This document shows, piece by piece, positions 22,847 to 41,002 of a stretch of 64,000 nucleotides of DNA (positions within the stretch are counted from its first letter, which is position 1; each line of letters starts with the position of its first letter). The position numbers and the translations under genes are program-made. Below the pieces are notes generated by a model. The model searched no databases and was not told the origin of the DNA. It saw only the letters and a program-made list of their open reading frames with translations. The stretch covers positions 6,153 through 70,152 of the forward strand of contig JAFWZG010000039.1 in NCBI GenBank assembly GCA_017517385.1. The letters are read 5' to 3'. The DNA comes from Akkermansia sp. (lineage in GTDB: Bacteria; Verrucomicrobiota; Verrucomicrobiia; Verrucomicrobiales; Akkermansiaceae).

Positions 22847-23752
22847 TTACACACTCTTAACTCTCATCTTAAAATACTCTGTCCAGTAAATCCATTTGAG
22901 GCGCCACAGGTAATGTCTAGCGACCGTATTCGGGTACATTATTGTTTTGGAAAACAAAGGCTGCACCACATCATCAATGGCAGAAACGATTTCCTCGCGG
23001 GTCCACCTGTTATCATATTGACTATCCATGATAGCAAATACGGTTTGCTCTGCAAAATCCCCACAATGTTCAGCCTGATAGCGAATACACTCCAGCGCTT
23101 TGTCATTGAGCATTTTCAAGCCGCCGTGAATGTAAACAACGCCACAATTTATCGGCTCCTCTGTATCATACAAGTACTCAGAACCCGAGGCTTTAATAAA
23201 ATGAGGGTCATAGCTATGACATGAGTCGATAGAAATCTTGAAATCCGTTGTGTTCCACTCATCATTCCGCAGGGGAGTACCATACCACAATACATCAGGA
23301 TCAGAGAAAAGCACCCTATCTGTCTCTGAAAGATAAAGAATGGCAGCCATCTTCTTCCCCCAGATGTGCTTTTCAGCCCAGGTTGTTAGTTCAGGCAGAG
23401 TATTTAGGTAAAAATCCGCACAGTGCTTCCAAGTCAGACATTCCACTTGGAGCCCCCGCTTTCGGAAATATCGAACACCATATTCCGGCTCCCAGGAACC
23501 GTCGGACACAATGACAACTCGAGAAGGCACAACTTCAGAATTACGATACAAACTAAACAACGACGCCTCTACCATGTCCAATGCAGATTTTTTACTGATG
23601 CTCAGGTACGTATAATCACCAACGCTCTTTTCTTTGGCCGGAATTCGGGCAGGAAACACTCTGGCGAGAACTCTGCACGCACGCACAAAGTTCCGCTGGC
23701 TCCAATCTCGCTTCCCCGAGACAGAGCGTATGAAATCTGAGTTATCTATCAC
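22847..23752 (-). CDS. Putative GT-A fold glycosyltransferase (GT8-like)
   Basis: First gene of the locus (GTG start). VLFSDPDVLW (DxD), INCGVV and AEQT motifs. Confidence 0.55.
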   Translation of the reverse strand: MIDNSDFIRSVSGKRDWSQRNFVRACRVLARVFPARIPAKEKSVGDYTYLSISKKSALDMVEASLFSLYRNSEVVPSRVVIVSDGSWEPEYGVRYFRKRGLQVECLTWKHCADFYLNTLPELTTWAEKHIWGKKMAAILYLSETDRVLFSDPDVLWYGTPLRNDEWNTTDFKISIDSCHSYDPHFIKASGSEYLYDTEEPINCGVVYIHGGLKMLNDKALECIRYQAEHCGDFAEQTVFAIMDSQYDNRWTREEIVSAIDDVVQPLFSKTIMYPNTVARHYLWRLKWIYWTEYFKMRVKSV

Positions 23753-23759
23753 GATTTAG

Positions 23760-23787
23760 ATTATATTTAAAGCTCGAAAATAAGCAA
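23760..23787 (-). promoter_or_regulatory. Promoter of the polysaccharide locus
   Basis: Minus strand TTGCTT, 16 bp, TATAAT, ending 7 nt before the GTG start. Confidence 0.55.
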
Positions 23788-26688: not shown

Positions 26689-28359
26689 TTAGCCCCTTCC
26701 CTCCAGCTTGGCGCGAATGAGCTCTGCGCACTCGGTGTGCCTGTAACGTTCAGCCACGCGAATGGGGGTGCTGCCATAGCCATTGGGCTTATCCGGCTGA
26801 ATGGTCGGAGCAGCCAGAAGCGCCTTCACACAGCCGGCATACCCCTTGTAAGCGGCGTACCAGAGAGGAGGCCATCCGTTATCGTTCGGTTTGTTCACAT
26901 CCGCACCGGCAGCAATAAGAAGCTTCAGGCAAGGTACCATGGTTTCACGCAGAGCAGATTGCAGAGGAGAACGGCCAGAGCTATCAAGCTTGTGAACATC
27001 CGCGCCGGCGTCTATTAGGGCCTTCAGGCATGCGGCATCATTTACTTCAAGTGCCAGGAAGAGGGGAGTCCTCCCGTTATCATCTGTACAATCCGGAGAA
27101 ACGCCGCCGCGGAGAATAGCTTCCACGCTTTGGGCATCCTTCCTCTCCACTGCGTCAAAAAGCATAGCAGGAGTCGCCTCCACACTATTAACTGCACTAT
27201 TAACCGGGGGCAATTCCTCACCCACAAAAAGGGTTGATAAAATCGTATTTGCGATATCCGAGACTTCGTCATCCTTGCTAACCTCCGCTAATGATGACTG
27301 CCACTTGCGATACGGAACCAGCATAAGAGCACCCTCAGCCGCAGCCTCCGGGAAGGACGCCCAAGTACGCGTCTTCAATCCGATACCGCCAGCCAACTGG
27401 GAGGAAATGTATGTCAACACGGGAGATGAACCTATGAGCAATACCATTTCAGGCTTTTCTTTAGCATCCGCCTGCTTGTCAATATCCTGTATGGCCGAGG
27501 CTATACGCTCCACGTCCCGTGTCAGCAATTTCTCGAAATCCGCGCGGTTAATATCGGCGGCTGTCAGTACTCCATTTTTAACAACACGGAAGACGCAGGC
27601 CTCAGCGGCCGACAGCCTGCGCTTCATCTCGCGCACACCGGCAAGAACAGCTGTAGCAGGAGACAACACACCCCCTGCCCCCTGAGCTTTAATCAATTCG
27701 CCCACATAAGAAGCCAACTTTTCATCAATAGCCTCACCACCCGCAGCATTTCCTAAATGAACACTGCGAGTTAAATACCCCTCCGCAGAACTGCGCACCA
27801 CATGGGCAATCTCCGGCGTACCACCGCCCCAATTCACCACCAGAGCACTTGTATTGAACGCCTTTGCGCCACTATAGCAACAATAGGCAGCGCCGGCTGC
27901 CTCCACCTCCGGCACAATCATTACCCGGGGAAATCCAGCGCTTAATGCGGCGGCAGACAACTCTTCCTTCTGAGCGGCCTGAAATCTTGCAGGACACGTC
28001 AGCACGGCCCCTGTAATTTCTACAGCCTCCTGATTTTCATCCTCCTTTACTCGGGCCAGAATCTTTTTCAGGAACTCACGCAGCAAATCACAGGCCTTGT
28101 ACTGCCCGAGCAGACACTTATTACTCCCCAAATGGGATTTGAACGCACGGCAATAAGAGGCCGGATTTTCCAAGCCCATCTCGTCAGCATCCTCACCAAA
28201 CACCAACTGCCCATCCTCACAGAGGAAAGCAGTAGAGGGAATAGGTGCATCATAGCGGCCAAGACGGAAGAAATACGGGCGACCGGTGTTCACATCAGCC
28301 GCCGCAAGGGTTTTTGACGTGCCGAAATCTATAGCAAGTGTTACTTCTTTTTTTGTCAT
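26689..28359 (-). CDS. Hsp70-like ATPase domain (degenerate) fused to ~5 ankyrin repeats (Hsp70-D)
   Basis: AIDFGTSKT, VLTCPARF..AQK, PEVEAAG, NWGGGTPE, GGEAID, RADFEKL, LIGSS. No substrate-binding domain. C-terminal GRTPLF, GRSPLQ and GWPPLW ankyrins. Confidence 0.85.
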   Translation of the reverse strand: MTKKEVTLAIDFGTSKTLAAADVNTGRPYFFRLGRYDAPIPSTAFLCEDGQLVFGEDADEMGLENPASYCRAFKSHLGSNKCLLGQYKACDLLREFLKKILARVKEDENQEAVEITGAVLTCPARFQAAQKEELSAAALSAGFPRVMIVPEVEAAGAAYCCYSGAKAFNTSALVVNWGGGTPEIAHVVRSSAEGYLTRSVHLGNAAGGEAIDEKLASYVGELIKAQGAGGVLSPATAVLAGVREMKRRLSAAEACVFRVVKNGVLTAADINRADFEKLLTRDVERIASAIQDIDKQADAKEKPEMVLLIGSSPVLTYISSQLAGGIGLKTRTWASFPEAAAEGALMLVPYRKWQSSLAEVSKDDEVSDIANTILSTLFVGEELPPVNSAVNSVEATPAMLFDAVERKDAQSVEAILRGGVSPDCTDDNGRTPLFLALEVNDAACLKALIDAGADVHKLDSSGRSPLQSALRETMVPCLKLLIAAGADVNKPNDNGWPPLWYAAYKGYAGCVKALLAAPTIQPDKPNGYGSTPIRVAERYRHTECAELIRAKLEGRG

Positions 28360-28387
28360 TGCAGGAAAAAAATATCTTTAGTCCATA

Positions 28388-30310
28388 TTAATATGCGGTA
28401 GCGGCAGCTTTCAGCAAAGCCTCACACTCAGCATGCCCATACCGCCCGGCCAAACTCAGCGCGGCATCTCCCTCCGGAGTCTGCTTATGAATATCAAGAC
28501 CACCAGAGGTAAGAAGCAGGCGCAGAACAGAGGCGGCCCCGGTACTGGCGGCATGGTGCAGCAGAGTCCAACCATGCTCATCCACGCGGTTCACATCTGC
28601 CCCGGCATGCAGAAGCAGCCTCAAGCAATCCAGCTTTTCAGCGAAGGCGGCGGACCACAGAGGGGTCCAGTTCAGCTCATTTGCGGCCTCTAAGCTTGCG
28701 CCGGAATATAAGAGATTACGGAGCACCCTGGCATGCCCGGCATGAGCAGCCTCGTGCATAGGAGTATTGCCGCCATAGCCGGCCTTCGCCGGGTCTATCC
28801 CGGGAGAGAGCAGCAGCATCCCCACAATAGCCTCCTGCCCACAGGCAGCGGCACGGCATAAAGGCAGTTCGCCTCGGCTATTGGGCCGGTTCACATCCAC
28901 TTGCCCGGCATTCAACAGCTCACGAACAACTGCCTGCTTATCAGTATAAGTTGCTGCCCAAAGAGGAGTCCAGCCCACAGCATCAGCTGCGTTCACGTCC
29001 CCGCCGTTAGCTATAAGCTTACGCAGCAACTGCACATCCCCCTCTGCTGCAGCGGAGACAACGTCCGCCGGGGTGGTGGGAAGCGGCTTCGCGGGGGGAG
29101 GCTCAGTAGCAGGGCCCGGAGGAACAGGAGGCAATGCCGGATCCGAAGGAACAGGCGGTAACACCGGCCCCGGAGGAACAGGCGGTAGCACGGGCTCTCC
29201 AACCGGCTCAGTCGGAACGGGCACGAACTCAGCCTCAAAAAGCTCTGTAAACAGCTTCTGCTGCTGAAGCTTAATACATGCGCCCTTTACTGACGCCCCG
29301 ACAGAACGGTACAGATGCACTTTAGCATTAGGAAGTTCCGCCGCAATCATGCGTCCGGCTGCAGGAATATCCGCCCCCGGTCCACTCAGGAGGATCTGCT
29401 TAGGAGGCGCGCCTCGAAAATTTGTTCTGACAAAGCGGCGCAAGGCTGCTCCGGCCTGCTTCATGTAAGGAGCGAGAAGCTCCTCATACTCCTCAACCGT
29501 ACCGGGCACCGTAAGCTTCTTCCCTCTCAAACTCAGGCGAATTTCAGCTTTACCCTCTGTGAGTAGCTGTTTTCTGAACTCGCGAACGAGATTCATAAAA
29601 CGGGGCCAGGAGAGCCCGGTCACCTTAGTCTGAACGGCCATTTTAGCAAGTAGGTGCATCGCGAGGGTATCATCCAGCTCTTCGCAGCCTACAGAGCACA
29701 CATTAAAAGAACGCCCCAGCTTACAGGAAGAAAAATCGGAGGCCACGGTCACCTGCACGGCTTCCAGAGATCCATCCCCCCAGAACAGCATCACAACATC
29801 CTGTGCAGCAAACACCTTGCGCCCGCCGTACATGCAGACGGAAACCAGCGCCTCGGACTGAGATATGAGCTCTACCGCAGGAAAACCAGCCGCCAGAGCA
29901 GCCTCCTTCAAAAGCTGCCGCTGTGCAGCGCTGAATGCGGCAGGACAAGTCAGCATCACGCCGGAAATCTGACGCCCCTCAGCCATAGAGGAGCCATTCA
30001 CTTTGCGAAGAATCCACGCAAGATGCTCCCGCACTAAATCAGCCGCGGTAAACTCCCCGAGAAGAGGTGCCGGGCTCCCCAGTTTCATCTTATATGCGCG
30101 GCAGTAACCGGCAGGCTCCTCAAGGCCCAGCTTCTCAGCCTCATCACCAAAACATAAGCGCCCACCCTTCATCAGATAAGCAGAAGAGGAGGCACAAGCG
30201 CCACTACTGCCCAAGCGAAAAAAACGCGGCTTCGCACCCGGCACAACCTCAGCTACAATAGATGAGGTTGTGCCGAAATCCACGGCCAGTCTGATATATT
30301 CGGCAGACAT
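28388..30310 (-). CDS. Hsp70-like ATPase domain (strongly degenerate), Pro-rich linker, ~7 ankyrin repeats (Hsp70-C)
   Basis: AVDFGTTSS, LTCPAAFSAAQR, SQSEAL, FWGDGSLE, GCEELDD, LSGPG. Polyproline linker. GWTPLW, GELPLC, GNTPMH and NWTPLW ankyrins. Confidence 0.85.
   Translation of the reverse strand: MSAEYIRLAVDFGTTSSIVAEVVPGAKPRFFRLGSSGACASSSAYLMKGGRLCFGDEAEKLGLEEPAGYCRAYKMKLGSPAPLLGEFTAADLVREHLAWILRKVNGSSMAEGRQISGVMLTCPAAFSAAQRQLLKEAALAAGFPAVELISQSEALVSVCMYGGRKVFAAQDVVMLFWGDGSLEAVQVTVASDFSSCKLGRSFNVCSVGCEELDDTLAMHLLAKMAVQTKVTGLSWPRFMNLVREFRKQLLTEGKAEIRLSLRGKKLTVPGTVEEYEELLAPYMKQAGAALRRFVRTNFRGAPPKQILLSGPGADIPAAGRMIAAELPNAKVHLYRSVGASVKGACIKLQQQKLFTELFEAEFVPVPTEPVGEPVLPPVPPGPVLPPVPSDPALPPVPPGPATEPPPAKPLPTTPADVVSAAAEGDVQLLRKLIANGGDVNAADAVGWTPLWAATYTDKQAVVRELLNAGQVDVNRPNSRGELPLCRAAACGQEAIVGMLLLSPGIDPAKAGYGGNTPMHEAAHAGHARVLRNLLYSGASLEAANELNWTPLWSAAFAEKLDCLRLLLHAGADVNRVDEHGWTLLHHAASTGAASVLRLLLTSGGLDIHKQTPEGDAALSLAGRYGHAECEALLKAAATAY
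29111..29191 (-). repeat. Three 27-bp tandem repeats encoding (V/A)LPPVP(PG/SD)P
   Basis: Plus-strand units AGGGCCCGGAGGAACAGGAGGCAATGC, CGGATCCGAAGGAACAGGCGGTAACAC and CGGCCCCGGAGGAACAGGCGGTAGCAC. Confidence 0.8.
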
Positions 30311-30472
30311 ATTATCTAAGTAATTTGTGAGAAAATCCGTTTAATACTAGGCGATTCCCAGCACCACACCGGATAAAGCTTACCGGATTCCCTTATACCA
30401 TACGCATTATCGCGTTGTCAATCATATTTTGAAGTGCATATACCCCCCTGCCGAAAAAATAGAACGCCAGCC

Positions 30473-30625
30473 TCACGAATTATTCTGGAACAAAGCGTTG
30501 TAGATACCACGCAGCAGCAGAGCAGCCAGAACAGTCACCACAAAACCACCACCGGCCTCCATGCGAATAAGCACAGCAGCCATTATCACCATAGCGAAAA
30601 TCATTATAAACAGTACTACTTTCAT
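30473..30625 (-). CDS. Unannotated 50-aa two-TM membrane protein (paralogue of 35396-35542)
   Basis: MKVVLFIMIFAMVIMAAVLIRMEAGGGFVVTVLAALLLRGIYNALFQNNS*. Shares MK.V....ME.G....L.LRGIY.A...N with the other copy. Below the ORF-track cutoff. Confidence 0.8.
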   Translation of the reverse strand: MKVVLFIMIFAMVIMAAVLIRMEAGGGFVVTVLAALLLRGIYNALFQNNS

Positions 30626-30751
30626 TGTTTTTTTTCTTTCTTTTTAAGTTTTTCAGGAGAGCGCCCTATGTGAGCTATCATATATTCTCCCCCTCTGCTT
30701 AAATAGACACAGCATCTCCATTCTTCGTTCATTCTTTTTTTATTCTACAGT

Positions 30752-30793
30752 AAAAAAACTAACACCGCCACTCCCGCACAAGGAGAGGCGGTG
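30752..30793 (-). terminator. Terminator after Hsp70-B
   Basis: CACCGCC-(T/A)-CTCC stem followed by TTAG and T7 on the minus strand. Confidence 0.7.
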
Positions 30794-30854
30794 CTGCAAA
30801 TACTGGTTAAAACAGCGGAAGTTACGGAGAATCCACGCAAGAAAACTTGCATGA

Positions 30855-32807
30855 TTATTTATTGAAAAGGCCGCTAAACCATTTCTTAATCTTCTTAGCA
30901 CGGAGATATGCAGAGGCCCCACTGACGCCGGCTTTGCTGGCGTCTTCCAGCAAGCGAAACCCTCTACGCTGAAGCTCAACAGAACCGGTCTGATCCGCTT
31001 GCTCCAGATAGAGCCGTGCCAATTCATACCCGGCGCACTTATCGCCCTTACTAAGGGCGATGGAATACCACTTCGCCGCGGCGTTCAAATCCTTTTTCAC
31101 ACCGTAACCCAGCCAATAGCAAAGGCCCATACGGCGGGCGGCTGAAGCATCCCCACGCTCTGCCTTTTTCTTGTATTCCGCTGCGGCCTGCGCCGGCTCA
31201 TAAATTATCCCCGCTTCGTCAATATACGGGGTCATTTTTTCCTCATTGAAATTTCTTTCACACTTCCAATCATATGCGCCACAGTTTTCGACCACGCCAA
31301 GATGACGCACAGCACTCATCTTTACAATTTTGGCCTTCGTGCTCCCCAGATAAATAGCATCATCCAGCCACTTATGAGCAGAAGTAAAGTGGAACTGCTT
31401 CAACATAGCCACGGGAGTGTCATCTATAATGCAGAGATGACAAGCCCCCAGCTGCGCCATAGCCTCCACGTTACCACGTACAGCCGCACGCCGATACCAT
31501 TTCGCGCAAAGAATATAATCCTTCGTCTTCTTGAGCATCACCGAGGCAGCGTTTTCCAACGCGCCGGGCTCGCCCCGCACCGCTGAGGCTGCCAACCAGT
31601 TCTCCACGCCATTCCTCAACAGCTCCTCTATTTCGTCAGCATAAGGTTCTTTCGGCTTAACCGGCTGCGCGGGAGGCGGAGGATAAGGCGTAGGCGCAGG
31701 CGTAGGCGTGGGGGGACGCTTCACCGGCGCCTCCGGGGCCTTTGCCTTTTCAGGCGGACGCGTTGTAAGAGCCGCTCCCATCACCACGGCTGCACGAGCC
31801 TTGTTCCACGTTCGGGCCGGCAAACCGGTAACCCGCTCAAGCTCCTTACGTATGCAGGGAATAAGCGCAGTACCGCCCACCAACACCAGCATTTCAGGCT
31901 GTAGGGATTCCGGAAGCCCGCTTAACAGGTTCTTTACGGCATCCGCCGCAGCGGATACATCAGAATGTATACTCTTCTCGAAATCAGCACGTTTCACCTG
32001 AGCAGAAAGCAGCCCACCGGACGTCACCTGATGAAAAGCCCCGGTCTCTGCAGAGGAAAGCACCATCTTCAGATTGCGAACGCCCTGAGCAAAACGCTGC
32101 CAGGACATATGCTCCGGCAGAGTCTTGCCCTCCAGTTGTTCCATGACAAGCTCACTGAGGCGATCATCAAACACCTCGCCGCCCATGCTGTTATTGCCGA
32201 AGGCTGCGCGCTTCTGAGCATTGATTTTCTTGCCACTGCGAGAAACGAGCGCCACGTCTAGTGTACCGCCACCCCAATCCACCACCAGGGCATTATTCTT
32301 AAACGCCTGAGCGCCACTGAAGTGGCAAAAGGCAAAGCCCGCAGCCTCCGGCTCAGTAATGAGTTTTACTTCCGAAAGCCCGGAGGCAAGCGCCGCATCC
32401 GTCAGCTGTTTTTTCTGAGCAGCACTGAAGTTCACCGGGCAGGTCAGCACAGCACCGCTGATTTTCATTTTATACAGAGTGGCATCATCCTTTACCCGGC
32501 GCACGAGGTGAGATAAGAACTCACGCACCAAATCCTGTGCTGTATAATGCCCCAGCACGGGCGCTGTACTACCCAGCTTCATCTTAAATGCACGGCAGTA
32601 GCAGGAGGCGTTCATCTCCGCCATATCGTCCGCATCATCACCAAACAAGAGGCTGCCGTCTTCCTGCAAATAAGCAGTTGTAGGAATCAAATCCGCATTT
32701 CGGCCCATTTTCAGAATACGAGGCTCGCCACGCTCATCAGCATAAGCAATGAGCGTCTTGGTTGTACCGAAGTCTATGGCTAAAGTGATGGAAGGAGAGG
32801 TACTCAT
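30855..32807 (-). CDS. Hsp70-like ATPase domain (intact motifs), Pro-rich linker, Sel1-like repeats (Hsp70-B)
   Basis: AIDFGTTKT, TEPEAAG, DWGGGTLDV, GGEVFDD, LVGGTALIP, AVVMGAA. Sel1 motifs AKWYRRAAVRGN and GLCYWLGYGVKKDLNAAAKWY. Confidence 0.88.
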   Translation of the reverse strand: MSTSPSITLAIDFGTTKTLIAYADERGEPRILKMGRNADLIPTTAYLQEDGSLLFGDDADDMAEMNASCYCRAFKMKLGSTAPVLGHYTAQDLVREFLSHLVRRVKDDATLYKMKISGAVLTCPVNFSAAQKKQLTDAALASGLSEVKLITEPEAAGFAFCHFSGAQAFKNNALVVDWGGGTLDVALVSRSGKKINAQKRAAFGNNSMGGEVFDDRLSELVMEQLEGKTLPEHMSWQRFAQGVRNLKMVLSSAETGAFHQVTSGGLLSAQVKRADFEKSIHSDVSAAADAVKNLLSGLPESLQPEMLVLVGGTALIPCIRKELERVTGLPARTWNKARAAVVMGAALTTRPPEKAKAPEAPVKRPPTPTPAPTPYPPPPAQPVKPKEPYADEIEELLRNGVENWLAASAVRGEPGALENAASVMLKKTKDYILCAKWYRRAAVRGNVEAMAQLGACHLCIIDDTPVAMLKQFHFTSAHKWLDDAIYLGSTKAKIVKMSAVRHLGVVENCGAYDWKCERNFNEEKMTPYIDEAGIIYEPAQAAAEYKKKAERGDASAARRMGLCYWLGYGVKKDLNAAAKWYSIALSKGDKCAGYELARLYLEQADQTGSVELQRRGFRLLEDASKAGVSGASAYLRAKKIKKWFSGLFNK

Positions 32808-32895
32808 CTTGTAAAATAATCAGTAGGTTTATAAGTTAACGAAAGCCCTTTTCAGCTTGTATGACGCCCCAACAGGCAGAATTGTTCATGCAATT

Positions 32896-35349
32896 TTAAT
32901 ATCTCGCACGCCTCATGGCCGCCTCCAGCAAGCGAACACACTCAGTGTAACCTCTGCTCCGAGCATACTCCAAATGCGTTTTCCCATATTGGGTTGCGTG
33001 TACATTTATATGCGGGTACTGTAATAAAGCCTCCACCATCGGCACGTCATTATTTTCTATAGCCACCCTAAGAAGGCTTTCACTAGCTGAATTGACCAAT
33101 TCATACTTGGCGCCGGGAGCTGTCACAAATATCCGTACAGCTTCCGCGTCATGCTTCTCCACTAATTTGGCAATGAAATAATTATCACAGCGGTATCCCT
33201 TCTGTACAAGCATTTGCAAATCCGCACCGTTCAATGTACCATGCATTATACGAGCCTCCAGCGCACTTGCAACAGGGCTACTGGTAAATACTTCACCATT
33301 CCAAGATGATACCAACCACTCATTACTTGCCATACCCGGATACTCCACGAACAACAACACAAACATAAAAGCACCTAGGAGTATCCCGCCCATCCCTATG
33401 AAGATGGATTTTGTATAGTCAGTATGCCTACGGCCACAATATCTGGCAAACATTATTAGGCCGCATAAATAGACCAACCCAATAAGCACCCCTAGCAATA
33501 CATGACCATTGTATATCATATAGGTCAGCACCAAGGCCAGTAGAACAAGCAGCAGCAACAACATCTTCGCCACATACCAGAACATGCGCAGCTTGGCCCT
33601 CTTACACCCGGCAACAGAAGCACGATAACATAACGACAGAGGCGATTTAGCCGTATGCAAAAAAAGCTCATAAAGTGCTTCCGGGTGCCCATTATCAGCA
33701 GCAGTTTTATACCACGTCAATGCATCATCGGAGCTCTTTGCCACAGCGGTGCCATTTTCATACATCTTAGCTATGCGGTACTGAGCATCAGTCACGCCCT
33801 TATCAGCCGCCCTTCGCAGCCAAAGGTATGCCTGACCGGCATCTGCGTCGACGCCGATACCATCCTCATAACAACGCCCAAGCGCCCACATACCATAAGG
33901 ATGCCCTTTCTCCGCGGACTTCCGATAATACCCCACCGCTTTCATGGAATCAGGGCTGAGCAGAGTCCCCTTCTCTGCCCCTATGCCTAGGCGGTACAGA
34001 GCATCAGCATTTCCGGCATCCGCCGCGCGCTGATATAGTCCGAGAGCCTTTTTCGCATCCTTTGTAGTGCCAATGCCTTCTTCATAGCAAAGGCCAAGGC
34101 TGAACATAGCGGGGCAATAATCACGGGCAGCAGATTTCGTGAGCCACATGACCCCCTCAGCTTCATTATGATTATTCAAGCAACTCTTCCCCACCTCATA
34201 CTGAGCGCGCCTGTAACCACTCTTGGCCAGCACAAGCAGTTTCCCGGAATCCTGAGGAAGCGGCTCGGAATCCACCTCCTCAGTCGCAGTCGCCTCTGAA
34301 TTAGCAAGAAGAGCTGCGCCCATTACCACAGCCTCACGTGCTTTTGCCCATGTACGGGCAGGAAGGCCTGTAACAGCCTCCAGCTCGCGGCGTATGCAGG
34401 GGATAAGAGCTGTACCCCCCACTAGTACCAGCATCTCCGGCTTACAATCTGCCGGCAGCCCCGCCATGAACTCCTTCACCGCGGCTACAGCAGCAGTCAC
34501 GTCTCTCGCTATCAGTTTTTCGAACGTGGCACGCTTCACCTTCAGAACAAGCGGGCTTCCTCCCACCACCATTCGCAATACACCCTCTTCACCGGCAGAA
34601 AGCGACACTTTCAGAGAGCGCACATTTTTCATCAGCTCCGGCATACTAAGGCTGCTCACCTCCATACGAGAAGCCAGCTCGCCCAGCACATACTCACCTA
34701 AACAATCATCAAAAACCTCGCCACCCACCGTATTGAGGCCAAAGGCATAGCGCCTATGGGAACGAATACTTTTCCCTTGGCGGGTAATGAGTGCTACGTC
34801 TAGCGTGCCACCTCCCCAGTCCACCACCAGAGCATTTTTTCGGAAAGCCTCTGTGGTGCAGCTGAAACAGAAGGCACTACCGGCAGCCTCCGGCTCCGTC
34901 ACAAACTCCACCTCCGGCAGCCCCGCGGCCAAAGCGGCTTCTCGCAGCTGGTGAATCTGCGCTTTGCTAAAATCCACCGGGCAAGTCAGCACCGCACCAT
35001 TTATCTGCACGCCAAGCATTGTGGCATCGGCCTTCACCTTCTGCAGCAAGTACGCCAGGTACTCCCGCACCAGCTCCTGTGCCGTATAACGCCCCAATAC
35101 AGGAACCTTGCCTCCCAGCTTCATCTTAACACCCCGGCTGTAATTCCCGGGATCTATCACAGCCATATCGTCCGCATCCTCGCCAAACAGCAGGCTACCG
35201 TCTTCCTGCAAATACGCGGTCGTCGGTATCAAATCCACATTTCGCCCCATGCGCATAACGCGGGGCTCGCCCTTGTCATCAGCGTAGGCCACAAGTGTTT
35301 TCGTCGTTCCGAAATCAATTGCCAGAGTAATACCCGAATGATAGCTCAT
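32896..35349 (-). CDS. Hsp70-like ATPase domain (intact motifs), ~6 Sel1 repeats, 3 TM helices, ankyrin repeats (Hsp70-A)
   Basis: AIDFGTTKT, TEPEAAG, DWGGGTLDV, GGEVFDD, LVGGTALIP. Sel1 e.g. AMFSLGLCYEEGIGTTKDAKKALGLYQRAA. Hydrophobic block MLLLLLVLLALV...LFVEYP. Terminal ankyrins. Confidence 0.88.
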   Translation of the reverse strand: MSYHSGITLAIDFGTTKTLVAYADDKGEPRVMRMGRNVDLIPTTAYLQEDGSLLFGEDADDMAVIDPGNYSRGVKMKLGGKVPVLGRYTAQELVREYLAYLLQKVKADATMLGVQINGAVLTCPVDFSKAQIHQLREAALAAGLPEVEFVTEPEAAGSAFCFSCTTEAFRKNALVVDWGGGTLDVALITRQGKSIRSHRRYAFGLNTVGGEVFDDCLGEYVLGELASRMEVSSLSMPELMKNVRSLKVSLSAGEEGVLRMVVGGSPLVLKVKRATFEKLIARDVTAAVAAVKEFMAGLPADCKPEMLVLVGGTALIPCIRRELEAVTGLPARTWAKAREAVVMGAALLANSEATATEEVDSEPLPQDSGKLLVLAKSGYRRAQYEVGKSCLNNHNEAEGVMWLTKSAARDYCPAMFSLGLCYEEGIGTTKDAKKALGLYQRAADAGNADALYRLGIGAEKGTLLSPDSMKAVGYYRKSAEKGHPYGMWALGRCYEDGIGVDADAGQAYLWLRRAADKGVTDAQYRIAKMYENGTAVAKSSDDALTWYKTAADNGHPEALYELFLHTAKSPLSLCYRASVAGCKRAKLRMFWYVAKMLLLLLVLLALVLTYMIYNGHVLLGVLIGLVYLCGLIMFARYCGRRHTDYTKSIFIGMGGILLGAFMFVLLFVEYPGMASNEWLVSSWNGEVFTSSPVASALEARIMHGTLNGADLQMLVQKGYRCDNYFIAKLVEKHDAEAVRIFVTAPGAKYELVNSASESLLRVAIENNDVPMVEALLQYPHINVHATQYGKTHLEYARSRGYTECVRLLEAAMRRARY

Positions 35350-35395
35350 AATGATATGTCAGGAGAGAGTGAAAGACGGCATAGCTGCGCCATGC

Positions 35396-35542
35396 TCAGT
35401 TTTTGTACATAGCACTGTAAATACCTCGTAAAATCAAACAAGGAACAACAGCAAAATAAGTGGGAGCACCTACTTCCATACATAAAAGCACGACAGCTAC
35501 TGTTAATATAACACCAATAATCGCAAATACAACAATTTTCAT
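35396..35542 (-). CDS. 48-aa two-TM membrane protein
   Basis: MKIVVFAIIGVILTVAVVLLCMEVGAPTYFAVVPCLILRGIYSAMYKN*. Start reassigned to 35542 by alignment with the paralogue. Confidence 0.8.
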   Translation of the reverse strand: MKIVVFAIIGVILTVAVVLLCMEVGAPTYFAVVPCLILRGIYSAMYKN

Positions 35543-35666
35543 CTCATTTTTCCTTTCTTTTTTATTTTTTTCTGGGAGCAAGCCATATAGGCTAACTTTT
35601 ATTCACCATTCTGGTTACTCCGACGCTATCACCTCCCGGCACGTTCAAGCATTTCATTCAGTCCAT

Positions 35667-35705
35667 AAAAAAAATCCCCAGCACAGGTAACCCATGCGCC
35701 AGGGA
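35667..35705 (-). terminator. Terminator after the second dynamin-like gene
   Basis: Minus strand TCCCTGGCGCA/TGTGCTGGGGA (with G-U pairs) followed by T8. Confidence 0.7.
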
Positions 35706-35798
35706 GTGTGATAAGGAAATGTAAAAACACTACATAATGACCCACTCAGAAACCACAAAAAATCTGATAAAAACAGGCGAGAACAATGGAAGTATTCA

Positions 35799-37424
35799 TC
35801 AGTGAGAAGAGGTAATCATGAGGTGAGAGTATACGGCACGCACTTTAGCAGCACATTCGCGGGCAAACTTATTAGGCACAAACGCAAGCAGGCCGGCAAT
35901 CTGCTGCAAGGTCTCCACATTATCAGCCGGCCGTGGCTGTGCTTCCGTAAGTACGAGGTTGGCACAGCGATCCACAATCTCCAACTGGGCAGGATTCAGC
36001 CAGCGGCTGCGCTCCTTCCAGTCCTGAAGAAGATACAAGGCATCGTCCATCAGCTGAACCCGCTCTGCTATGGAGCAGCGGAGCATATCAATGGAGAGTA
36101 ACGCTTCTTCCATGCGGGCAAGCTCAGCCCGGGCCCGAGAAGTACGCTCCTCCGTCTGCTTCCGCAGCTGAGTAGAGCGCAGCTCGTTAGCGACCTCGGA
36201 GAAGTAATCCACCTCCATTCGCTGAGCCTCAATAACGTCATCCAGAGCATAATTCACCTCTTGGAGGAGAGTCTGCACCTTACTGCGAATCTGCCGCAGG
36301 CTGATAACGGCCCTGCGCTTGAAGAATGAAGTATCCAACAGGTGGCGAAGGCGGGGGATGCCACTGAGCTGCATGGTCATAGCGGCGGCATCCTCCGCGG
36401 AGGCCGGCTGCTTATCATACAAGTAATGGAGCATCATGCGGAACGAGGAAAGGGGCAGCTCCAGCTCACGCAGAGAGCACCACAGGGCGTAAATGGCAGG
36501 GTATTTTTCCTGCCAGCGCACTTCATTGCGCTTTACTGCTTTTCGCAGGTCATCAGCAGTATCAAATGAGGCTAGTAAATCAAGCACGTCCAGCCAGAAG
36601 CTTCGCGGAGCTACAGCGGCAAGCAAGCCCAAAGGTGCGCTCACCGGCACAACCTCAGAAAGCAGGTGAGAAAACTGGCCGCGAAGAGTCGCCACATGCT
36701 CCTCCACGGTAGCAAGCGCCTCATCCGCCGAAGCCCCGGCGGAGGCATTCCAATAAAGGTCATCCCAGAGGTGCATCACGCCTACGCAGTTATACGTCTC
36801 ATACCCCTGCAGGCCCATCTGACGGAACTTTTCAAGGGCCTGAACGTCCTCTTCACGCCCAACATGGCCGAATACATAGAGCAGAGCATCCGTATTTCCA
36901 CCGCAAAGGAACTGCTGCGCCACGGCCTCATGGAAATCCACCGCGGCGCCGATACCGGGAGTATCAATGATATTCATCTGGCTCACGATGGGGGCATCGG
37001 AATAGAACTCCAGGTGGTTAACGCCTGCTACCATCTGCTCCACATCTGAGCCTTTTCCGCTCCATTCCTTGAGCCTAGCGAGGGGGTAACGCTCCGGCTG
37101 AGAGTTTTTCCAATAAGCAGAGAATTCCTCACAAGCGGAGCCGGTGCCGTAAGTAATGTGGTTCACGGTGGCAGTCGTTTCCTCGGTACCGGTGACGGCC
37201 AACTTCTTACCGACCAGCGCATTAATGATACTACTTTTACCCCGCTTCATGTAGCCGAACACGGCTATTCTGAAGGGGTTATCCATATTACGCACGAGCT
37301 CACGCAAGCCCAGCTCCCATTCATGCACCTGCACACAGGGGGCGAGCATATCAGCAAGCTTGAGCAGGTTCTGTGCATATTCCCGGCGGTAACGCACGGC
37401 ACCCAGTTCTACTTGTTCGGACAT
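35799..37424 (-). CDS. Bacterial dynamin-like GTPase (IniC/DLP2-like)
   Basis: G1 GYMKRGKSS, G2 TEETT, G3 IDTPGIG, followed by a helical coiled-coil stalk. Confidence 0.88.
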   Translation of the reverse strand: MSEQVELGAVRYRREYAQNLLKLADMLAPCVQVHEWELGLRELVRNMDNPFRIAVFGYMKRGKSSIINALVGKKLAVTGTEETTATVNHITYGTGSACEEFSAYWKNSQPERYPLARLKEWSGKGSDVEQMVAGVNHLEFYSDAPIVSQMNIIDTPGIGAAVDFHEAVAQQFLCGGNTDALLYVFGHVGREEDVQALEKFRQMGLQGYETYNCVGVMHLWDDLYWNASAGASADEALATVEEHVATLRGQFSHLLSEVVPVSAPLGLLAAVAPRSFWLDVLDLLASFDTADDLRKAVKRNEVRWQEKYPAIYALWCSLRELELPLSSFRMMLHYLYDKQPASAEDAAAMTMQLSGIPRLRHLLDTSFFKRRAVISLRQIRSKVQTLLQEVNYALDDVIEAQRMEVDYFSEVANELRSTQLRKQTEERTSRARAELARMEEALLSIDMLRCSIAERVQLMDDALYLLQDWKERSRWLNPAQLEIVDRCANLVLTEAQPRPADNVETLQQIAGLLAFVPNKFARECAAKVRAVYSHLMITSSH

Positions 37425-37447
37425 AGGAATATAGGTAAAAAGTTTGA

Positions 37448-37966
37448 TTAATTTGAAACGGAGGAGGATTCAGCGGGCATATCCAGCTCCACCTCCTGTT
37501 TGCGCAGGAGCTGAGAGCCTATTCTAACGCCCGTGGAAAATGAACGGGTAACGATGGGGAATGCGCCGGGGGCAAGCACGCGGTTCACCTTCACGGCCCG
37601 CTGCAAGGCAGGCGTCCAATCAGCGGAGCGCAGCAGCTCCACCCCCTGCGTTTTCAGCAAGGCTCGCAATTGATCTGCAATTTCACCGATGGCGGCTCGC
37701 TCCGCGGGAGGATAAACTGACAAGCTTTCCAGTTCATCCAAAAAATCCACCATCAGCAGTATGCGCGTTGCAGGGGCGTCAACAGGAGCCTGCAGGCCGG
37801 CAAGGCGGCTGAGAAGAAAATCCTGCAAGTCTCCCTCCGGCACTCTGCGGGCGATATCCTGCTGAAGGGCTAATTCATCCTCCAGAGCGCGCCCCTCGGG
37901 AACGGCCTCCTCAGAGGCGGTTCCCGGCTTTCCGGAGAAGAGGTATTTTGAGAGAAACTCCCACAT
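37448..37966 (-). CDS. GrpE-like protein
   Basis: Helical N-terminus, then LKTQGVELL...WTPALQRAV...V.....GVRIGSQLLRKQEVEL, matching the GrpE head pattern L...GV....FDP..H.AV...V.....GY.L..RLLRPA.V.V. Confidence 0.65.
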   Translation of the reverse strand: MWEFLSKYLFSGKPGTASEEAVPEGRALEDELALQQDIARRVPEGDLQDFLLSRLAGLQAPVDAPATRILLMVDFLDELESLSVYPPAERAAIGEIADQLRALLKTQGVELLRSADWTPALQRAVKVNRVLAPGAFPIVTRSFSTGVRIGSQLLRKQEVELDMPAESSSVSN

Positions 37967-37997
37967 GGTTCCAATTACTTCAGGCGTTTAAATGGTA

Positions 37998-39872
37998 TCA
38001 AGCAGGAAAAAGCACCGCAAGAACATCATTGAAGAGCTTCTTTCCGGCAGCCAGCTCAGTCTTGGCCTCACGCAGCTCGCGAGCTGAGATACCGGCTCGA
38101 TTCTGGATTTGCTGAGCCTCTCGCTGCAAGGCGGCCTCTTCATTCCTGAGGTACTCTTCCACGGATTCCGTAGCCTCGGTTGCAGCGCGATTGTGCAGTA
38201 AGCCTACAGAGCGGGAAATCTCCTGACCGGCCACATTCAGCGCGCGCTCCAGCAGGGAAATCAGAACCTGCTTTTGCTGCTTCAGGTTAGCCTCATTCAC
38301 ATTACTGCCGCCCTGTACACCACCCCAGATAGCACCGATTGCCGCACCGGCAAAACCGCCAAGAGCCGTACCAACAATCGGCACAACGGAGCCAACGATA
38401 GAGCCCACAACGTATCCGGCACTGGAGCCAAGAGATACACCCATGGAGGCACCCCGCACCTGCTCATAGAGCTTTGCCCCGTTCACGCCGTCCTCTATCG
38501 GGCTGAGCACGTTCGCCACTCGAGCGTCCGTCATGGCGCAATTCTCCACGGAAAGCTTACTTGCCGTAACCTCGTTTGTGAGACGGCAAATTCCTTTACT
38601 TACGCCCTGTGCATAGGTATCTACAATGGCCCGGAACTCATTCTTAAGAGACTCTAAGAGGGCTTCTTTCAACGGCAACTGCCCGGCAGAGCTATCACCC
38701 TCCAGAAGCTTCTTAAGACTGCCGAAATCCTGGCAAGCGTTCACCTTTGAGATAATCTCCATATACATGGCACCGCCCAGCCCCACAGAGGTGCAGCTCT
38801 GCATAGCCTGTTGATAGTTCAAATCCATCATACGCTTGAGGGGCGTGAGATAATTATTTTTAATATTCAGCTTCCACTCAGTGAAATCAGCTTTGGCTTT
38901 TTCCGCCTGCTTCATCAGTGCGTCCAGCTCTTCCTGAGCCTCCGTGTCCAGCATCTTGCTGCGAGAAGTAAGCAGAGTGCGGCAGCGCTGAAGCACCGGT
39001 GTCCACAACTGGGCCTGACGCTTCACGGCCATCATATTCTTCTCTATCAGCATCTTATCACAGCAGAAGGATTGCAGGTTCGGATACCCGCTGTCATCCA
39101 AATCATCCTCATCAGCATCCGGGTTAAACACATCCGCACAATCTAGGAGGAAATAGAGGCAGCCGGTCTTATAAAAATCCGGAAAGTTCTCATTAATGAT
39201 GGAAAGGTTATTCTCGCGACGGCGCTGAGCATCAGCCATCCCTATGGAGAGCACTTTGGTCTGCACGAAGAAGAGGTTGGACGTCACCTCCAGCACATCC
39301 TTAATGTACTGGCACTCCAGATTGCCGAAGGGGGCTTTATGATCCGTTACAAAGAATACGGCATCCGCCTGAGATACATAGCGATAAGTAATGGCTCGGT
39401 GGGCCTTGTACATACCGCCCAAACCGGGCGTATCTATCAGACAGAAACCACTCTTCAGGAACTCAGAGGGGCATGTTATCTCGATATAATCCACGCCCTT
39501 TTCATTCAAGGGATTGCCCTTTTCAGTACCATATGCCGTCACTTCACAAGCCGGAATGAAGAGGGGCTCCCTTGCAGGGGTGCCATCCTCTGCGGGCAGA
39601 AAGTGCACAGCGTAGGTAAGATGCTCACCGTAGGTCACCCGGTACACACAGGATGTGGCAATCCCGGTATCCACCGGCACAAGATTTTCCACCCCCAGAA
39701 GCGCGTTGACGAAAGAAGATTTGCCTTTCTTCACTTCACCCAGCACCACGATATTAAACAAGCCTTTCTCGAACTCATCAAGCTTGCTCATGTAATGCCC
39801 GGATACCGGCTCTCCGGCCAGTTTCTCATGCAATTTTGCCAGTTGTTTTAAAGACGATACGATATTTTTCAT
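37998..39872 (-). CDS. Bacterial dynamin-like GTPase (IniA/LeoA/DLP1-like) with glycine-zipper membrane paddle
   Basis: G1 GEVKKGKSS, G2 GIAT, G3 IDTPGLG. Hydrophobic Gly-rich hairpin GVSLGSSAGYVVGSIVG...GGFAGAAIGAIWGG. Confidence 0.9.
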   Translation of the reverse strand: MKNIVSSLKQLAKLHEKLAGEPVSGHYMSKLDEFEKGLFNIVVLGEVKKGKSSFVNALLGVENLVPVDTGIATSCVYRVTYGEHLTYAVHFLPAEDGTPAREPLFIPACEVTAYGTEKGNPLNEKGVDYIEITCPSEFLKSGFCLIDTPGLGGMYKAHRAITYRYVSQADAVFFVTDHKAPFGNLECQYIKDVLEVTSNLFFVQTKVLSIGMADAQRRRENNLSIINENFPDFYKTGCLYFLLDCADVFNPDADEDDLDDSGYPNLQSFCCDKMLIEKNMMAVKRQAQLWTPVLQRCRTLLTSRSKMLDTEAQEELDALMKQAEKAKADFTEWKLNIKNNYLTPLKRMMDLNYQQAMQSCTSVGLGGAMYMEIISKVNACQDFGSLKKLLEGDSSAGQLPLKEALLESLKNEFRAIVDTYAQGVSKGICRLTNEVTASKLSVENCAMTDARVANVLSPIEDGVNGAKLYEQVRGASMGVSLGSSAGYVVGSIVGSVVPIVGTALGGFAGAAIGAIWGGVQGGSNVNEANLKQQKQVLISLLERALNVAGQEISRSVGLLHNRAATEATESVEEYLRNEEAALQREAQQIQNRAGISARELREAKTELAAGKKLFNDVLAVLFPA

Positions 39873-39913
39873 AACGGTAAACTTTGCGGTTAAGTTTAAA
39901 AATTGTTTTAAGG

Positions 39914-40759
39914 TTAATACAGGTCCATATCCTCCGAGATGTTCATATCCAGGTCATTATCCACCCCCGAATCCGGCAAGTCGTCATCATCATCATTGAG
40001 GCTAGCAAGCCCCGGAGAGTACCCGGCAGCCAGAGCCGGCTCAAGTGTAGTATCATCCGCCATAAAGTCCTCAATCATGCCACCGATGGTCTCACACACC
40101 ATTCCCAACGCTCCACCGGGTGTCACAATTTCAGAAACCTGAGAGATAATGGAACCCGCAGAGGACAACAGAGAATCCGTAAAACTTTCATCCAGATTGG
40201 CTACCTCAGGAATATCCGGAGCTTCAGTGGTAGAAACCATGAAGAAGTTCGAGTCGGACCACGCATCCACAAACTGCTCGTACGGATAACTGCGGCAACA
40301 GCCGGAGCCGGGATCCGTCACTATCACCTGCACATTCTGAGGGTCTCTCACATCCACACCGGTCACAAGAAGGGCATGATCCGGCACCTGCCCCAAAGCG
40401 CTATCCTCATAAAACTCCTGCAGGGGTTCCCAAAGCTCACCGGAATCCACACCGACTATCACCTGATGCCCCTGTGCCAACTCATTCATAAGAGTGGCGA
40501 CGTTACCCGAGAGGAACGTCTGAGTGCTCACGCCGTGCAGTTCAAGCAGCTTACCGATATCCCCCATGGGGGTACCATTCGTTGTCAGCAATCCATGCTC
40601 AAAAGCTACATCCATAAGCTGCTGCTCCGTTACATCCACCCCGAACATATTGAGGATGAGCTGCTGGCTTTTAACAGCACAGGTATAATCGGTACCCTGC
40701 TGAATTTCATCGGGAGAGAACGGGCTGATAGTCTGGCCGTACACTGAATCTGTAGTCAT
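39914..40759 (-). CDS. C39-like papain-fold cysteine peptidase with acidic C-terminal tail
   Basis: QQGTDYTC (oxyanion Gln and Cys), DHALLVTG (His), TDPGSG (Asp). Tail DDDDDLPDSGVDNDLDMNISEDMDLY. No signal peptide. Confidence 0.8.
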   Translation of the reverse strand: MTTDSVYGQTISPFSPDEIQQGTDYTCAVKSQQLILNMFGVDVTEQQLMDVAFEHGLLTTNGTPMGDIGKLLELHGVSTQTFLSGNVATLMNELAQGHQVIVGVDSGELWEPLQEFYEDSALGQVPDHALLVTGVDVRDPQNVQVIVTDPGSGCCRSYPYEQFVDAWSDSNFFMVSTTEAPDIPEVANLDESFTDSLLSSAGSIISQVSEIVTPGGALGMVCETIGGMIEDFMADDTTLEPALAAGYSPGLASLNDDDDDLPDSGVDNDLDMNISEDMDLY

Positions 40760-40907
40760 AATCTTAGCGTAAATGATAATGTTTTGCGGATGTGGGAATG
40801 AATTCGCTCAGCATCCGAACTGAGTCGAATTGTAATACCGTCTATCTTCTCTGACACTGAATATCAGTTTTTATTCAAAAAAATTTTACCCCATAGCTTT
40901 GTCCAAC

Positions 40908-40936
40908 ATATTACAATACACCAGAACATGAGTCAA
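40908..40936 (-). promoter_or_regulatory. Promoter of the peptidase-dynamin operon
   Basis: Minus strand TTGACT, 17 bp, TAATAT. Confidence 0.55.
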
Positions 40937-40939
40937 CAT

Positions 40940-40972
40940 AAAAAACCGCCTCTCCTGCGAAAGGAGAGACGG
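40940..40972 (-). terminator. Terminator of the dehydrogenase gene
   Basis: Minus strand CCGTCTCTCCT/AGGAGAGGCGG followed by T6. Confidence 0.8.
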
Positions 40973-41002
40973 CGCTGTGTATACAGGTGAAGCTTAAGAG
41001 AA

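Follow-up and report, generated by a model that had tools for sequence, protein, structure and literature searches.

The window analyzed here is a stretch of 64,000 nucleotides from a member of the genus Akkermansia (assembly GCA_017517385.1, contig JAFWZG010000039.1, positions 6,153 to 70,152 of the forward strand); the host assembly totals 2.66 Mb over 157 contigs, and coordinates refer to the window unless another locus is named. Four genes on the minus strand, here called A to D, code for proteins in which the nucleotide-binding domain (NBD) of Hsp70 is followed by a repeat-containing tail, and on the same strand are genes for a C39-like cysteine peptidase, two dynamin-like proteins (DLP1 and DLP2) and a GrpE-fold protein. 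The four NBD genes belong to two juxtaposed accessory modules: A and B lie in a 10.1-kb indel together with the peptidase, dynamin-like and GrpE-like genes, and C and D form a unit of their own.

Protein A (32896..35349, minus strand; 817 aa) has its NBD at residues 1-352, followed by four Sel1 repeats, three transmembrane (TM) segments and a hypervariable C-terminal ankyrin (Ank) module at residues 671-817 that is predicted to be periplasmic. Protein B (30855..32807, minus strand; 650 aa) and protein C (28388..30310, minus strand; 640 aa) both have a Pro-rich linker behind the NBD, which is degenerate in C, and protein D (26689..28359, minus strand; 556 aa) has a partly degenerate NBD. The Pfam HSP70 matches of A, B, C and D score 95.1, 102.4, 21.9 and 59.1 bits, respectively, with a gathering cut-off of 20.6; of the 599 profile positions, the matches reach only to ~368–373 for A, B and D, and that of C is weak (E 5.8e-5) and stops at 313, so that the NBD alone is present in each. 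NCBIfam DnaK and HscA models give scores of about 100 bits, against cut-offs of 650–820. When aligned to the genome's own DnaK, all four proteins end at the '(E)AVVMGAA'-equivalent last helix of the NBD and diverge beyond it, and none has a VLLLDVTPL-type hydrophobic interdomain linker.

The tails differ in kind. In A, Pfam finds the Sel1 repeats and, at 731-808, Ank_2, and the three hydrophobic segments span 587-665; the Sel1-like tail of B has a single Sel1 above threshold, and Ank matches extend across ~413-635 in C (about seven repeats) and ~397-541 in D (about 4–5 repeats). An AlphaFold2 model of B (70 homologues, pLDDT 85) consists of the NBD, a disordered Pro-rich linker at 350-389 and an entirely helical repeat tail, and its best Foldseek matches in the PDB are DnaK/Hsp70 NBDs with a target-normalized TM-score of about 0.8. 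A cryptic substrate-binding domain (SBD) is ruled out, as the model of B has no beta-sandwich and Pfam coverage is of the NBD only; Sel1 and Ank repeats, TM segments and Pro-rich stretches account for the tails of A, C and D, with no SBD or lid. These results agree with an original prediction made from the letters and open reading frames (ORFs) of this DNA, which had placed the four ORFs exactly where we find them, had described SBD-less NBDs without the DnaK linker and had assigned Sel1, TM and Ank tails to A, a Sel1 tail to B and Ank tails to C and D. Because the NBD starts at residue ~5 in all four proteins, there is no N-terminal effector domain, and no P-loop nucleotide-binding oligomerization domain (NOD; NACHT or NB-ARC, with Walker A and B motifs) was found in any of them, the fold being the actin-like one of Hsp70. 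Proteins A to D are neither STAND/NLR members nor canonical chaperones.

The catalytic residues separate A and B from C and D. We scored the positions equivalent to D8, K70, E171, D194 and T199 of DnaK and the GG-x-x-x-P motif. All of these residues, including the phosphate-1 Asp (D8), are kept in A, B and every cassette-type NBD examined, in which the DxGGGT motif is present as DWGGGTLD and the adenosine motif as GG-x-x-IP. In C there are substitutions of E171 by Q, D194 by F and GG by GP, and in D of D194 by N and GG by GS; the orthologues of C and D show the same degenerate pattern. By these motifs the best reading of A and B is as proteins competent for ATP, and C and D are probably Hsp70 NBDs kept as a nucleotide-independent scaffold.

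The genome organization draws the same boundary. In blastn comparisons with four sister species (L044–L047) the window is collinear to 30820 and again from 40942, and the segment 30821..40941 is therefore a 10.1-kb indel; it carries the C39, DLP1, GrpE-like and DLP2 genes, a micro-ORF, A and B, and is absent from all four species, in which both flanks are collinear. A terminator hairpin follows the saccharopine-dehydrogenase gene at 40942-41000 (the 40945-40973 part was also found by a terminator scan), and an imperfect copy of it follows B (30765..30820, minus strand). These two copies of about 55 nt bracket the indel, with RNA folds of -27 and -22.9 kcal/mol and z of about -3.5, each followed by a U-run; apart from the duplicated hairpin, the indel ends have neither att-like sites nor long direct repeats. 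The hairpin and a small ORF of 50 aa lie between B and C, and since B ends in a terminator, the small ORF, C and D are a separate unit. The indel, the terminator and the catalytic motifs rule out a single homogeneous four-gene array. The four tandem genes originally described are thus present, but as two modules of different history and catalytic state.

The indel carries a conserved cassette. Its first gene (39914..40759, minus strand) codes for the C39-like peptidase, a papain-fold protein of 281 aa with an acidic C-terminal tail (Pfam Peptidase_C39_2, E 2e-4); Q21, C27, H128 and D149 are kept in at least 90% of 30 homologues, and homologues are present in nearly all cassette loci. DLP1 (37998..39872, minus strand; 624 aa; Pfam Dynamin_N, E 6e-22) has conserved G1, G2 and G3 residues, and it is paired across all cassette loci with DLP2 (35799..37424, minus strand; 541 aa; Pfam Dynamin_N, E 5e-19), as two adjacent Dynamin_N genes on one strand. 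Both GTPases match Dynamin_N and not the DO-GTPase models, and a Pfam scan of the cassette proteins found no match to GAP1 families; membership in the DO-GTPase/GAP1 group is excluded on these grounds.

The GrpE-fold protein (37448..37966, minus strand; 172 aa) is recognized mainly by its predicted structure. Its AlphaFold2 model (pLDDT 89.5) has GrpE or GrpEL1 as all of its top 11 Foldseek matches, followed by a gap to E ~0.7. Its sequence matches are weak, with an E of 0.007 and 15.9 bits for NCBIfam GrpE against a cut-off of 233, an E of 0.1 for a PDB profile and no Pfam match. A GrpE-like C-terminal motif (W-P-QRAV / GL-G-RKQEV) is conserved, and most homologues have an N-terminal TM helix. 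Going by the modeled fold, this protein is a putative dedicated nucleotide-exchange factor for the NBDs.

The distribution of the cassette was examined by profile searches over 121 congeneric genomes and one genome per species for 185,579 species. A one-strand set of GrpE-like, C39, DLP1 and DLP2 genes with one to four NBD genes is found at 34 non-redundant loci, 33 of which are in Akkermansia, other Akkermansiaceae, Prosthecobacter, Verrucomicrobiales, Kiritimatiellae and Lentisphaeraceae. The exception (L088), on a 9.7-kb contig of a metagenome-assembled genome labeled Bacteroidales, is complete, and its NBD shares 37% identity with that of B; it was acquired horizontally or stems from misbinning. 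More distant relatives of the NBD, at no more than 30% identity, are present in Planctomycetota, Acidobacteriota, Thermotogae, cyanobacteria and other groups, and these lack the cassette. The NBD family occurs in 34 of the 121 congeneric species, at one to six copies per genome, and a sample of 61 genomes drawn from across the family includes five that carry it; the insertion sites of the cassette differ among congeners. As genes of the A/B type nearly always follow the GrpE-like/C39/dynamin-pair cassette, A and B look like subunits of a larger machine and not like stand-alone receptors.

A wide variety of tails is joined to this NBD. In the 120 relatives listed, the tails include Ank, Sel1, TPR, LysM, the ribosomal L7/L12 C-terminal domain, DUF805, TM2, GYF_2, a DnaJ zinc-finger, Fn3-associated and pyruvyl-transferase domains, and in the relatives examined the Hsp70 match always ends near profile position 370–380. 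Tandem paralogues with NBDs that are 63–81% identical have tails without detectable similarity. TM-like segments follow the NBD in 58 of the relatives listed, and in several there is one TM segment right after the NBD and then 150–590 residues of Ank with or without LysM, an arrangement that implies an extracytoplasmic tail. In A, where charged loops are present before TM1 (RAKLRM) and between TM2 and TM3 (RYCGRRHTDYTK), the positive-inside rule predicts that the NBD and Sel1 repeats are cytoplasmic and the Ank module periplasmic.

Two observations on tail domains are noted here. The L7/L12 C-terminal domain is the tail of several cassette NBD proteins (P0061, P0085, P0039 and P0073; 12302-14446 of L153). 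Since its role on the ribosome is to recruit translational GTPases, its presence is intriguing in an operon that codes for two GTPases. Several of the Sel1 proteins matching the tail of A (P0132, P0139, P0128, P0150 and P0137) are fused to dynamin/GTPase, TIR_2, caspase-like Peptidase_C14 or protein-kinase domains.

The C-terminal module of A is also exchanged between closely related strains. Assembly L073 is nearly identical to the window, with a background dS of about 0.01 and with Dyn1, Dyn2, the GrpE-like protein, C and D 99–100% identical; one tract of about 1.8 kb (~33450-31650), which spans the A C-terminal module and the B NBD and linker, is only 56–88% identical. In this tract the A module has dN 0.287, dS 0.398 and an omega of 0.72, and the B NBD has dS 0.771 and an omega of 0.08. 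Five alleles of A have the C-terminal module exchanged against a 98–100% identical NBD. Alleles P0003 and P0004 have NBDs 99–100% identical to that of A in the window and C-terminal modules 61% and 49% identical to it, and in P0013 the NBD is 87% and the C-terminal module 91% identical. From the mosaicism of the five alleles, tail exchange by recombination is real for A. A silent-cassette or shufflon source for the A C-terminus is ruled out: no partial copies lie beside the locus, the sole inverted repeat is a trivial one of 14 nt, and the many matches at other places in the genome are to Ank proteins of the usual kind.

Ank proteins are themselves numerous in this genome, with 137 matches to the 149-aa Ank module of A in ORFs of 500–2075 aa that are often clustered (G000 contigs C50, C99, C105, C37, C92, C111, C60 and C59). 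A second divergent tract relative to L073 (~23063-23763; 73–88% nucleotide identity) contains small ORFs between a glycine-zipper lipoprotein gene and a glycosyltransferase/pyruvyl-transferase locus, and is probably a recombination patch.

The C/D unit has a different history. It occupies a slot between aspS and the saccharopine-dehydrogenase gene that is empty in G167 and G109 and holds C/D orthologues in G124, G120, G161 and G157, with NBDs 82–91% and tails 71–89% identical to those of the window. In G092, G144 and G127 the slot holds pairs that are only ~35% identical, with flanks of 80–87% nucleotide identity, and the ATPase motifs of these diverged pairs show the same decay as in C and D or a more severe one. 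C/D and the cassette are together in the slot in this genome and in the near-identical assembly L073. Genomes G124 and G120 have C/D and no dynamin homologue, from which it follows that C/D works without the cassette. C orthologues are 84–90% identical overall with an omega of 0.10–0.14, and D orthologues 79–88% identical with an omega of 0.13–0.20; by domain, the values are 0.08–0.17 for the NBD and 0.12–0.25 for the tail, which indicates purifying selection. The tail is of the Ank type in every version, including those that are 35% identical. The original proposal of a constant switch with a diversifying tail is thus supported for the family of A and B, by the unrelated tails of its paralogues and the shuffled alleles of A, but not for C and D, whose unvarying Ank tails under purifying selection are what the proposal itself had named as grounds for refuting it.

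The unit is headed by a two-helix membrane micro-protein of 50 aa (30473..30625, minus strand), which is conserved upstream of the C orthologues in L044, L045, L047 and L073. A paralogue of 48 aa (35396..35542, minus strand) lies upstream of A and is an annotated gene in sister assembly L073. Outside this island, a hidden Markov model (HMM) search finds the family with C/D-type units only, and the micro-protein is thereby ruled out as a general part of the cassette; the family is also present in genomes without the cassette. After the first hydrophobic helix, the two micro-proteins have the loosely double-glycine-like sequences ...MEAGGG and ...MEVGA, and the C39-like peptidase is encoded nearby. 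Three complete Akkermansia genomes (L069, G054:C1; L070, G034:C10; L071, G169:C1) without the cassette-type NBD family have another tandem pair of SBD-less Hsp70 proteins of ~560 aa, whose NBDs (Pfam E 1e-102 and 1e-85) are far nearer to canonical Hsp70 and whose tails, ~190 aa in each, have no domain assigned.

The surroundings of the cassette vary between loci. In A. massiliensis-type contigs it lies between Fic, RhuM and kinase genes and genes for restriction-modification, GmrSD, HEPN, PDDEXK, AAA_15/21, HNH and HipA proteins. Extras that recur in the flanks include GYF_2, TM2, PrsW and Sel1 proteins, and VWA and DO-GTPase2 occur twice each among the 149 nearest-neighbor ORFs of the 34 loci. 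At L151 and L152 (13690-15582), in islands of the A. massiliensis type, the NBD gene is followed by a gene for a TM2-domain protein and then by 5–6 tandem genes of ~75–120 aa without a Pfam match.

We propose, at about an even chance, that the conserved cassette acts at the membrane in conflict or breach response and that A and B are its variable subunits, serving as adaptors or sensors. In this first module (30821-40941), A and B would carry interchangeable repeat or membrane tails, either cytoplasmic (Sel1, TPR or Ank) or periplasmic behind TM segments (Ank or LysM). In this scheme the GrpE-like factor would reset the ATP/ADP state of A and B, and it is through this state that the binding of a ligand to the tail would lead to the heterotypic dynamin pair being recruited or assembled at the inner membrane. 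The likely role would be a response to conflict or to a breach of the envelope, such as the blocking or sealing of membrane damage inflicted by phages. The second module (micro-protein, C and D) would be a separate transcription unit, a presence/absence polymorphism of the aspS|saccharopine-dehydrogenase slot that works without dynamins. The evidence for a role in conflict is the patchy spread, the differing insertion sites, the paralogues with new tails, the shuffling of the A module and, in A. massiliensis-type contigs, the setting of the cassette among the Fic, restriction-modification, HEPN, HipA and other genes listed above. Tentatively, the proposal can be taken further, to transmembrane Hsp70-based sensing peculiar to this group of bacteria: periplasmic Ank or LysM tails, or membrane-anchored cytoplasmic Sel1 or TPR tails, would detect envelope breaches or invader proteins, and the ATP/ADP switch with its dedicated, membrane-anchored GrpE would set off the dynamins and the C39 peptidase, so that the membrane is either sealed or sacrificed; this would be a functional analogue of NLRs on the basis of the actin/Hsp70 fold. 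We hold this fuller version to be doubtful.

Several observations weigh against a defensive, membrane-spanning role for A and B. The case for immunity is circumstantial: some loci lie in defense islands, but PADLOC searches of the 149 nearest-neighbor ORFs reveal no general enrichment of defense families; the neighbors are mostly housekeeping genes, and the PADLOC matches among them trace to few proteins, for example one kinase. Cassette proteins, DLP1 among them, match PADLOC LeoBC and LeoA at E 1e-8 to 1e-16, weakly and partially and mainly in the G domain. No relatives of more than 30% identity were found on catalogued phages and plasmids, where matches are at the DnaK/HscC level only. The omega of the variable module of A is below 1 and the pattern is driven by recombination, so that it does not demonstrate positive selection. 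The Ank module of A is probably periplasmic, the evidence being confined to the positive-inside rule and the LysM-bearing relatives, and most of the sequences compared derive from metagenome-assembled genomes. The anatomy, the fold, the state of the catalytic motifs, the conservation of the cassette, the indel, the variety of tails and the shuffling of alleles are observations, and the membrane topology, the switch behavior, the coupling to dynamins and the defense role are inferred from them.

A possible, though doubtful, alternative is that the cassette is a conditional machine for membrane remodeling or maintenance. The dynamins would then repair or shape the inner membrane (in vesicle formation, in the endomembranes of this bacterial superphylum or under envelope stress), with the NBD-repeat proteins acting as Hsc70/auxilin-type factors or anchors and the GrpE-like protein as their exchange factor. 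All components look membrane-proximal: a TM helix stands at the N terminus of most GrpE-like homologues, and TM segments are present in half of the NBD proteins; the recurrent TM2, PrsW and GYF_2 neighbors are membrane proteins, most flanks are housekeeping, and bacterial dynamin pairs are generally tied to membrane repair or fusion (PMC6104087). Maintenance functions fit poorly, however, with presence in only 34 of 121 congeneric species at differing insertion loci, with copy number and tails that vary among close relatives, and with a C-terminal module that is shuffled in near-identical strains; such a pattern is unusual and counts against this alternative.

It is unlikely that A to D are literal, self-contained receptors of the NLR/STAND type, in which the tail senses and the switch oligomerizes and signals alone. 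The combination of an NTPase with superstructure-forming repeats and diversifying tails would suit such receptors, C/D and some other members have no adjacent cassette, and it has been suggested that Hsp70-like NTPase domains stand in for STAND modules (bioRxiv 10.64898/2026.10.19.760177). Against it, there is no effector domain ahead of the NBD, genes of the A/B type are hardly ever without the dynamin cassette ahead of them, C and D have neither the catalytic residues of a switch nor variable tails, and the fold is not a P-loop one. The likeness to NLR/STAND receptors that was pointed out originally holds as an analogy and not as membership. Least probable is a peptide-processing or protein-handling system in which small membrane peptides would be the substrates of the C39-like peptidase, and the NBD-repeat proteins would serve the very large Ank/Sel1 proteome or exported factors: the conserved catalytic set of the peptidase, the glycine-containing motifs of the micro-proteins and the abundance of Ank-module matches would fit, but the micro-proteins occur only with C/D-type units, including in genomes that lack the cassette and its peptidase, no transporter is linked, and there is no SBD for client binding.

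Were the proposed role of A and B in defense or membrane breach correct, Hsp70 NBDs would join STAND, AP-GTPase and ParA proteins as sensing NTPase switches, bacterial dynamins would gain a defined recruitment mechanism, and a dedicated GrpE would be at work outside protein folding. The C/D pair would be a natural example of Hsp70 NBDs kept as pseudo-ATPase scaffolds. Some cultured lineages of Akkermansia carry the cassette (the A. massiliensis-type contigs); the genus attracts interest as a probiotic, and strain-specific phage resistance and envelope traits matter there for colonization and manufacturing.

The cassette was previously undescribed, and we found nothing relevant in the literature on an Akkermansia dynamin/Hsp70 locus, but there are parallels to known systems. 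With DnaK, HscA and HscC and their GrpE, the NBD fold, the catalytic motifs (in A and B) and a GrpE-fold partner are shared, but the linker, the beta subdomain of the SBD and the lid are absent here, as is a J-domain partner in the locus. The CoCoNuT protein CnuD (PMC10542128) likewise combines Hsp70-like ATPase domains, some degenerate, with helical repeats in GTPase-containing defense operons; unlike our locus, it has an NBD/SBD unit and is accompanied by McrB-type GTPases and nucleases.

Among dynamin systems, two adjacent dynamin-like genes in one operon are a feature shared with Campylobacter DLP1/2, Bacillus DynA, the cyanobacterial 'chaperone group' and Eleos LeoA/LeoBC. The Campylobacter DLP operon also has a gene of the Sel1 type (HcpA-like), and a DnaK-like gene has been noted downstream of cyanobacterial dynamin-like genes (PMC5827413). 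None of these has the fixed set of GrpE-like, C39 and NBD-repeat genes, and the likeness to Leo is in the G domain only.

The STAND and NLR proteins (Avs and bNACHT) resemble A and B in fusing an NTPase to C-terminal repeats of the Ank, Sel1 or TPR type, in their patchy spread and diversifying tails, and in the exchange of alleles at the strain level. They differ in having a P-loop NOD in place of the actin-like Hsp70 fold, and the proteins described here lack an N-terminal effector, are bound to a multi-gene cassette and in many cases are transmembrane. A further parallel is with GTPase-centered conflict systems, in which Hsp70, GrpE and NBD-only Hsp70 form a recurrent theme (Kaur, Burroughs, Iyer and Aravind 2020; PMC7159879). 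The DO-GTPase/GAP1-N2 systems described there are spread in actinobacteria and firmicutes, unlike the cassette of the Verrucomicrobiota group, which has Dynamin_N GTPases and a C39 core, with no GAP1 or FNIII-DnaJ found and no full-length Hsp70. Both nonetheless join two paralogous GTPases to an Hsp70 homologue and a GrpE; some of the published systems include an Hsp70 without the peptide-binding domain, as here, and in each the variable parts bear repeats and the system is predicted to act near the membrane.

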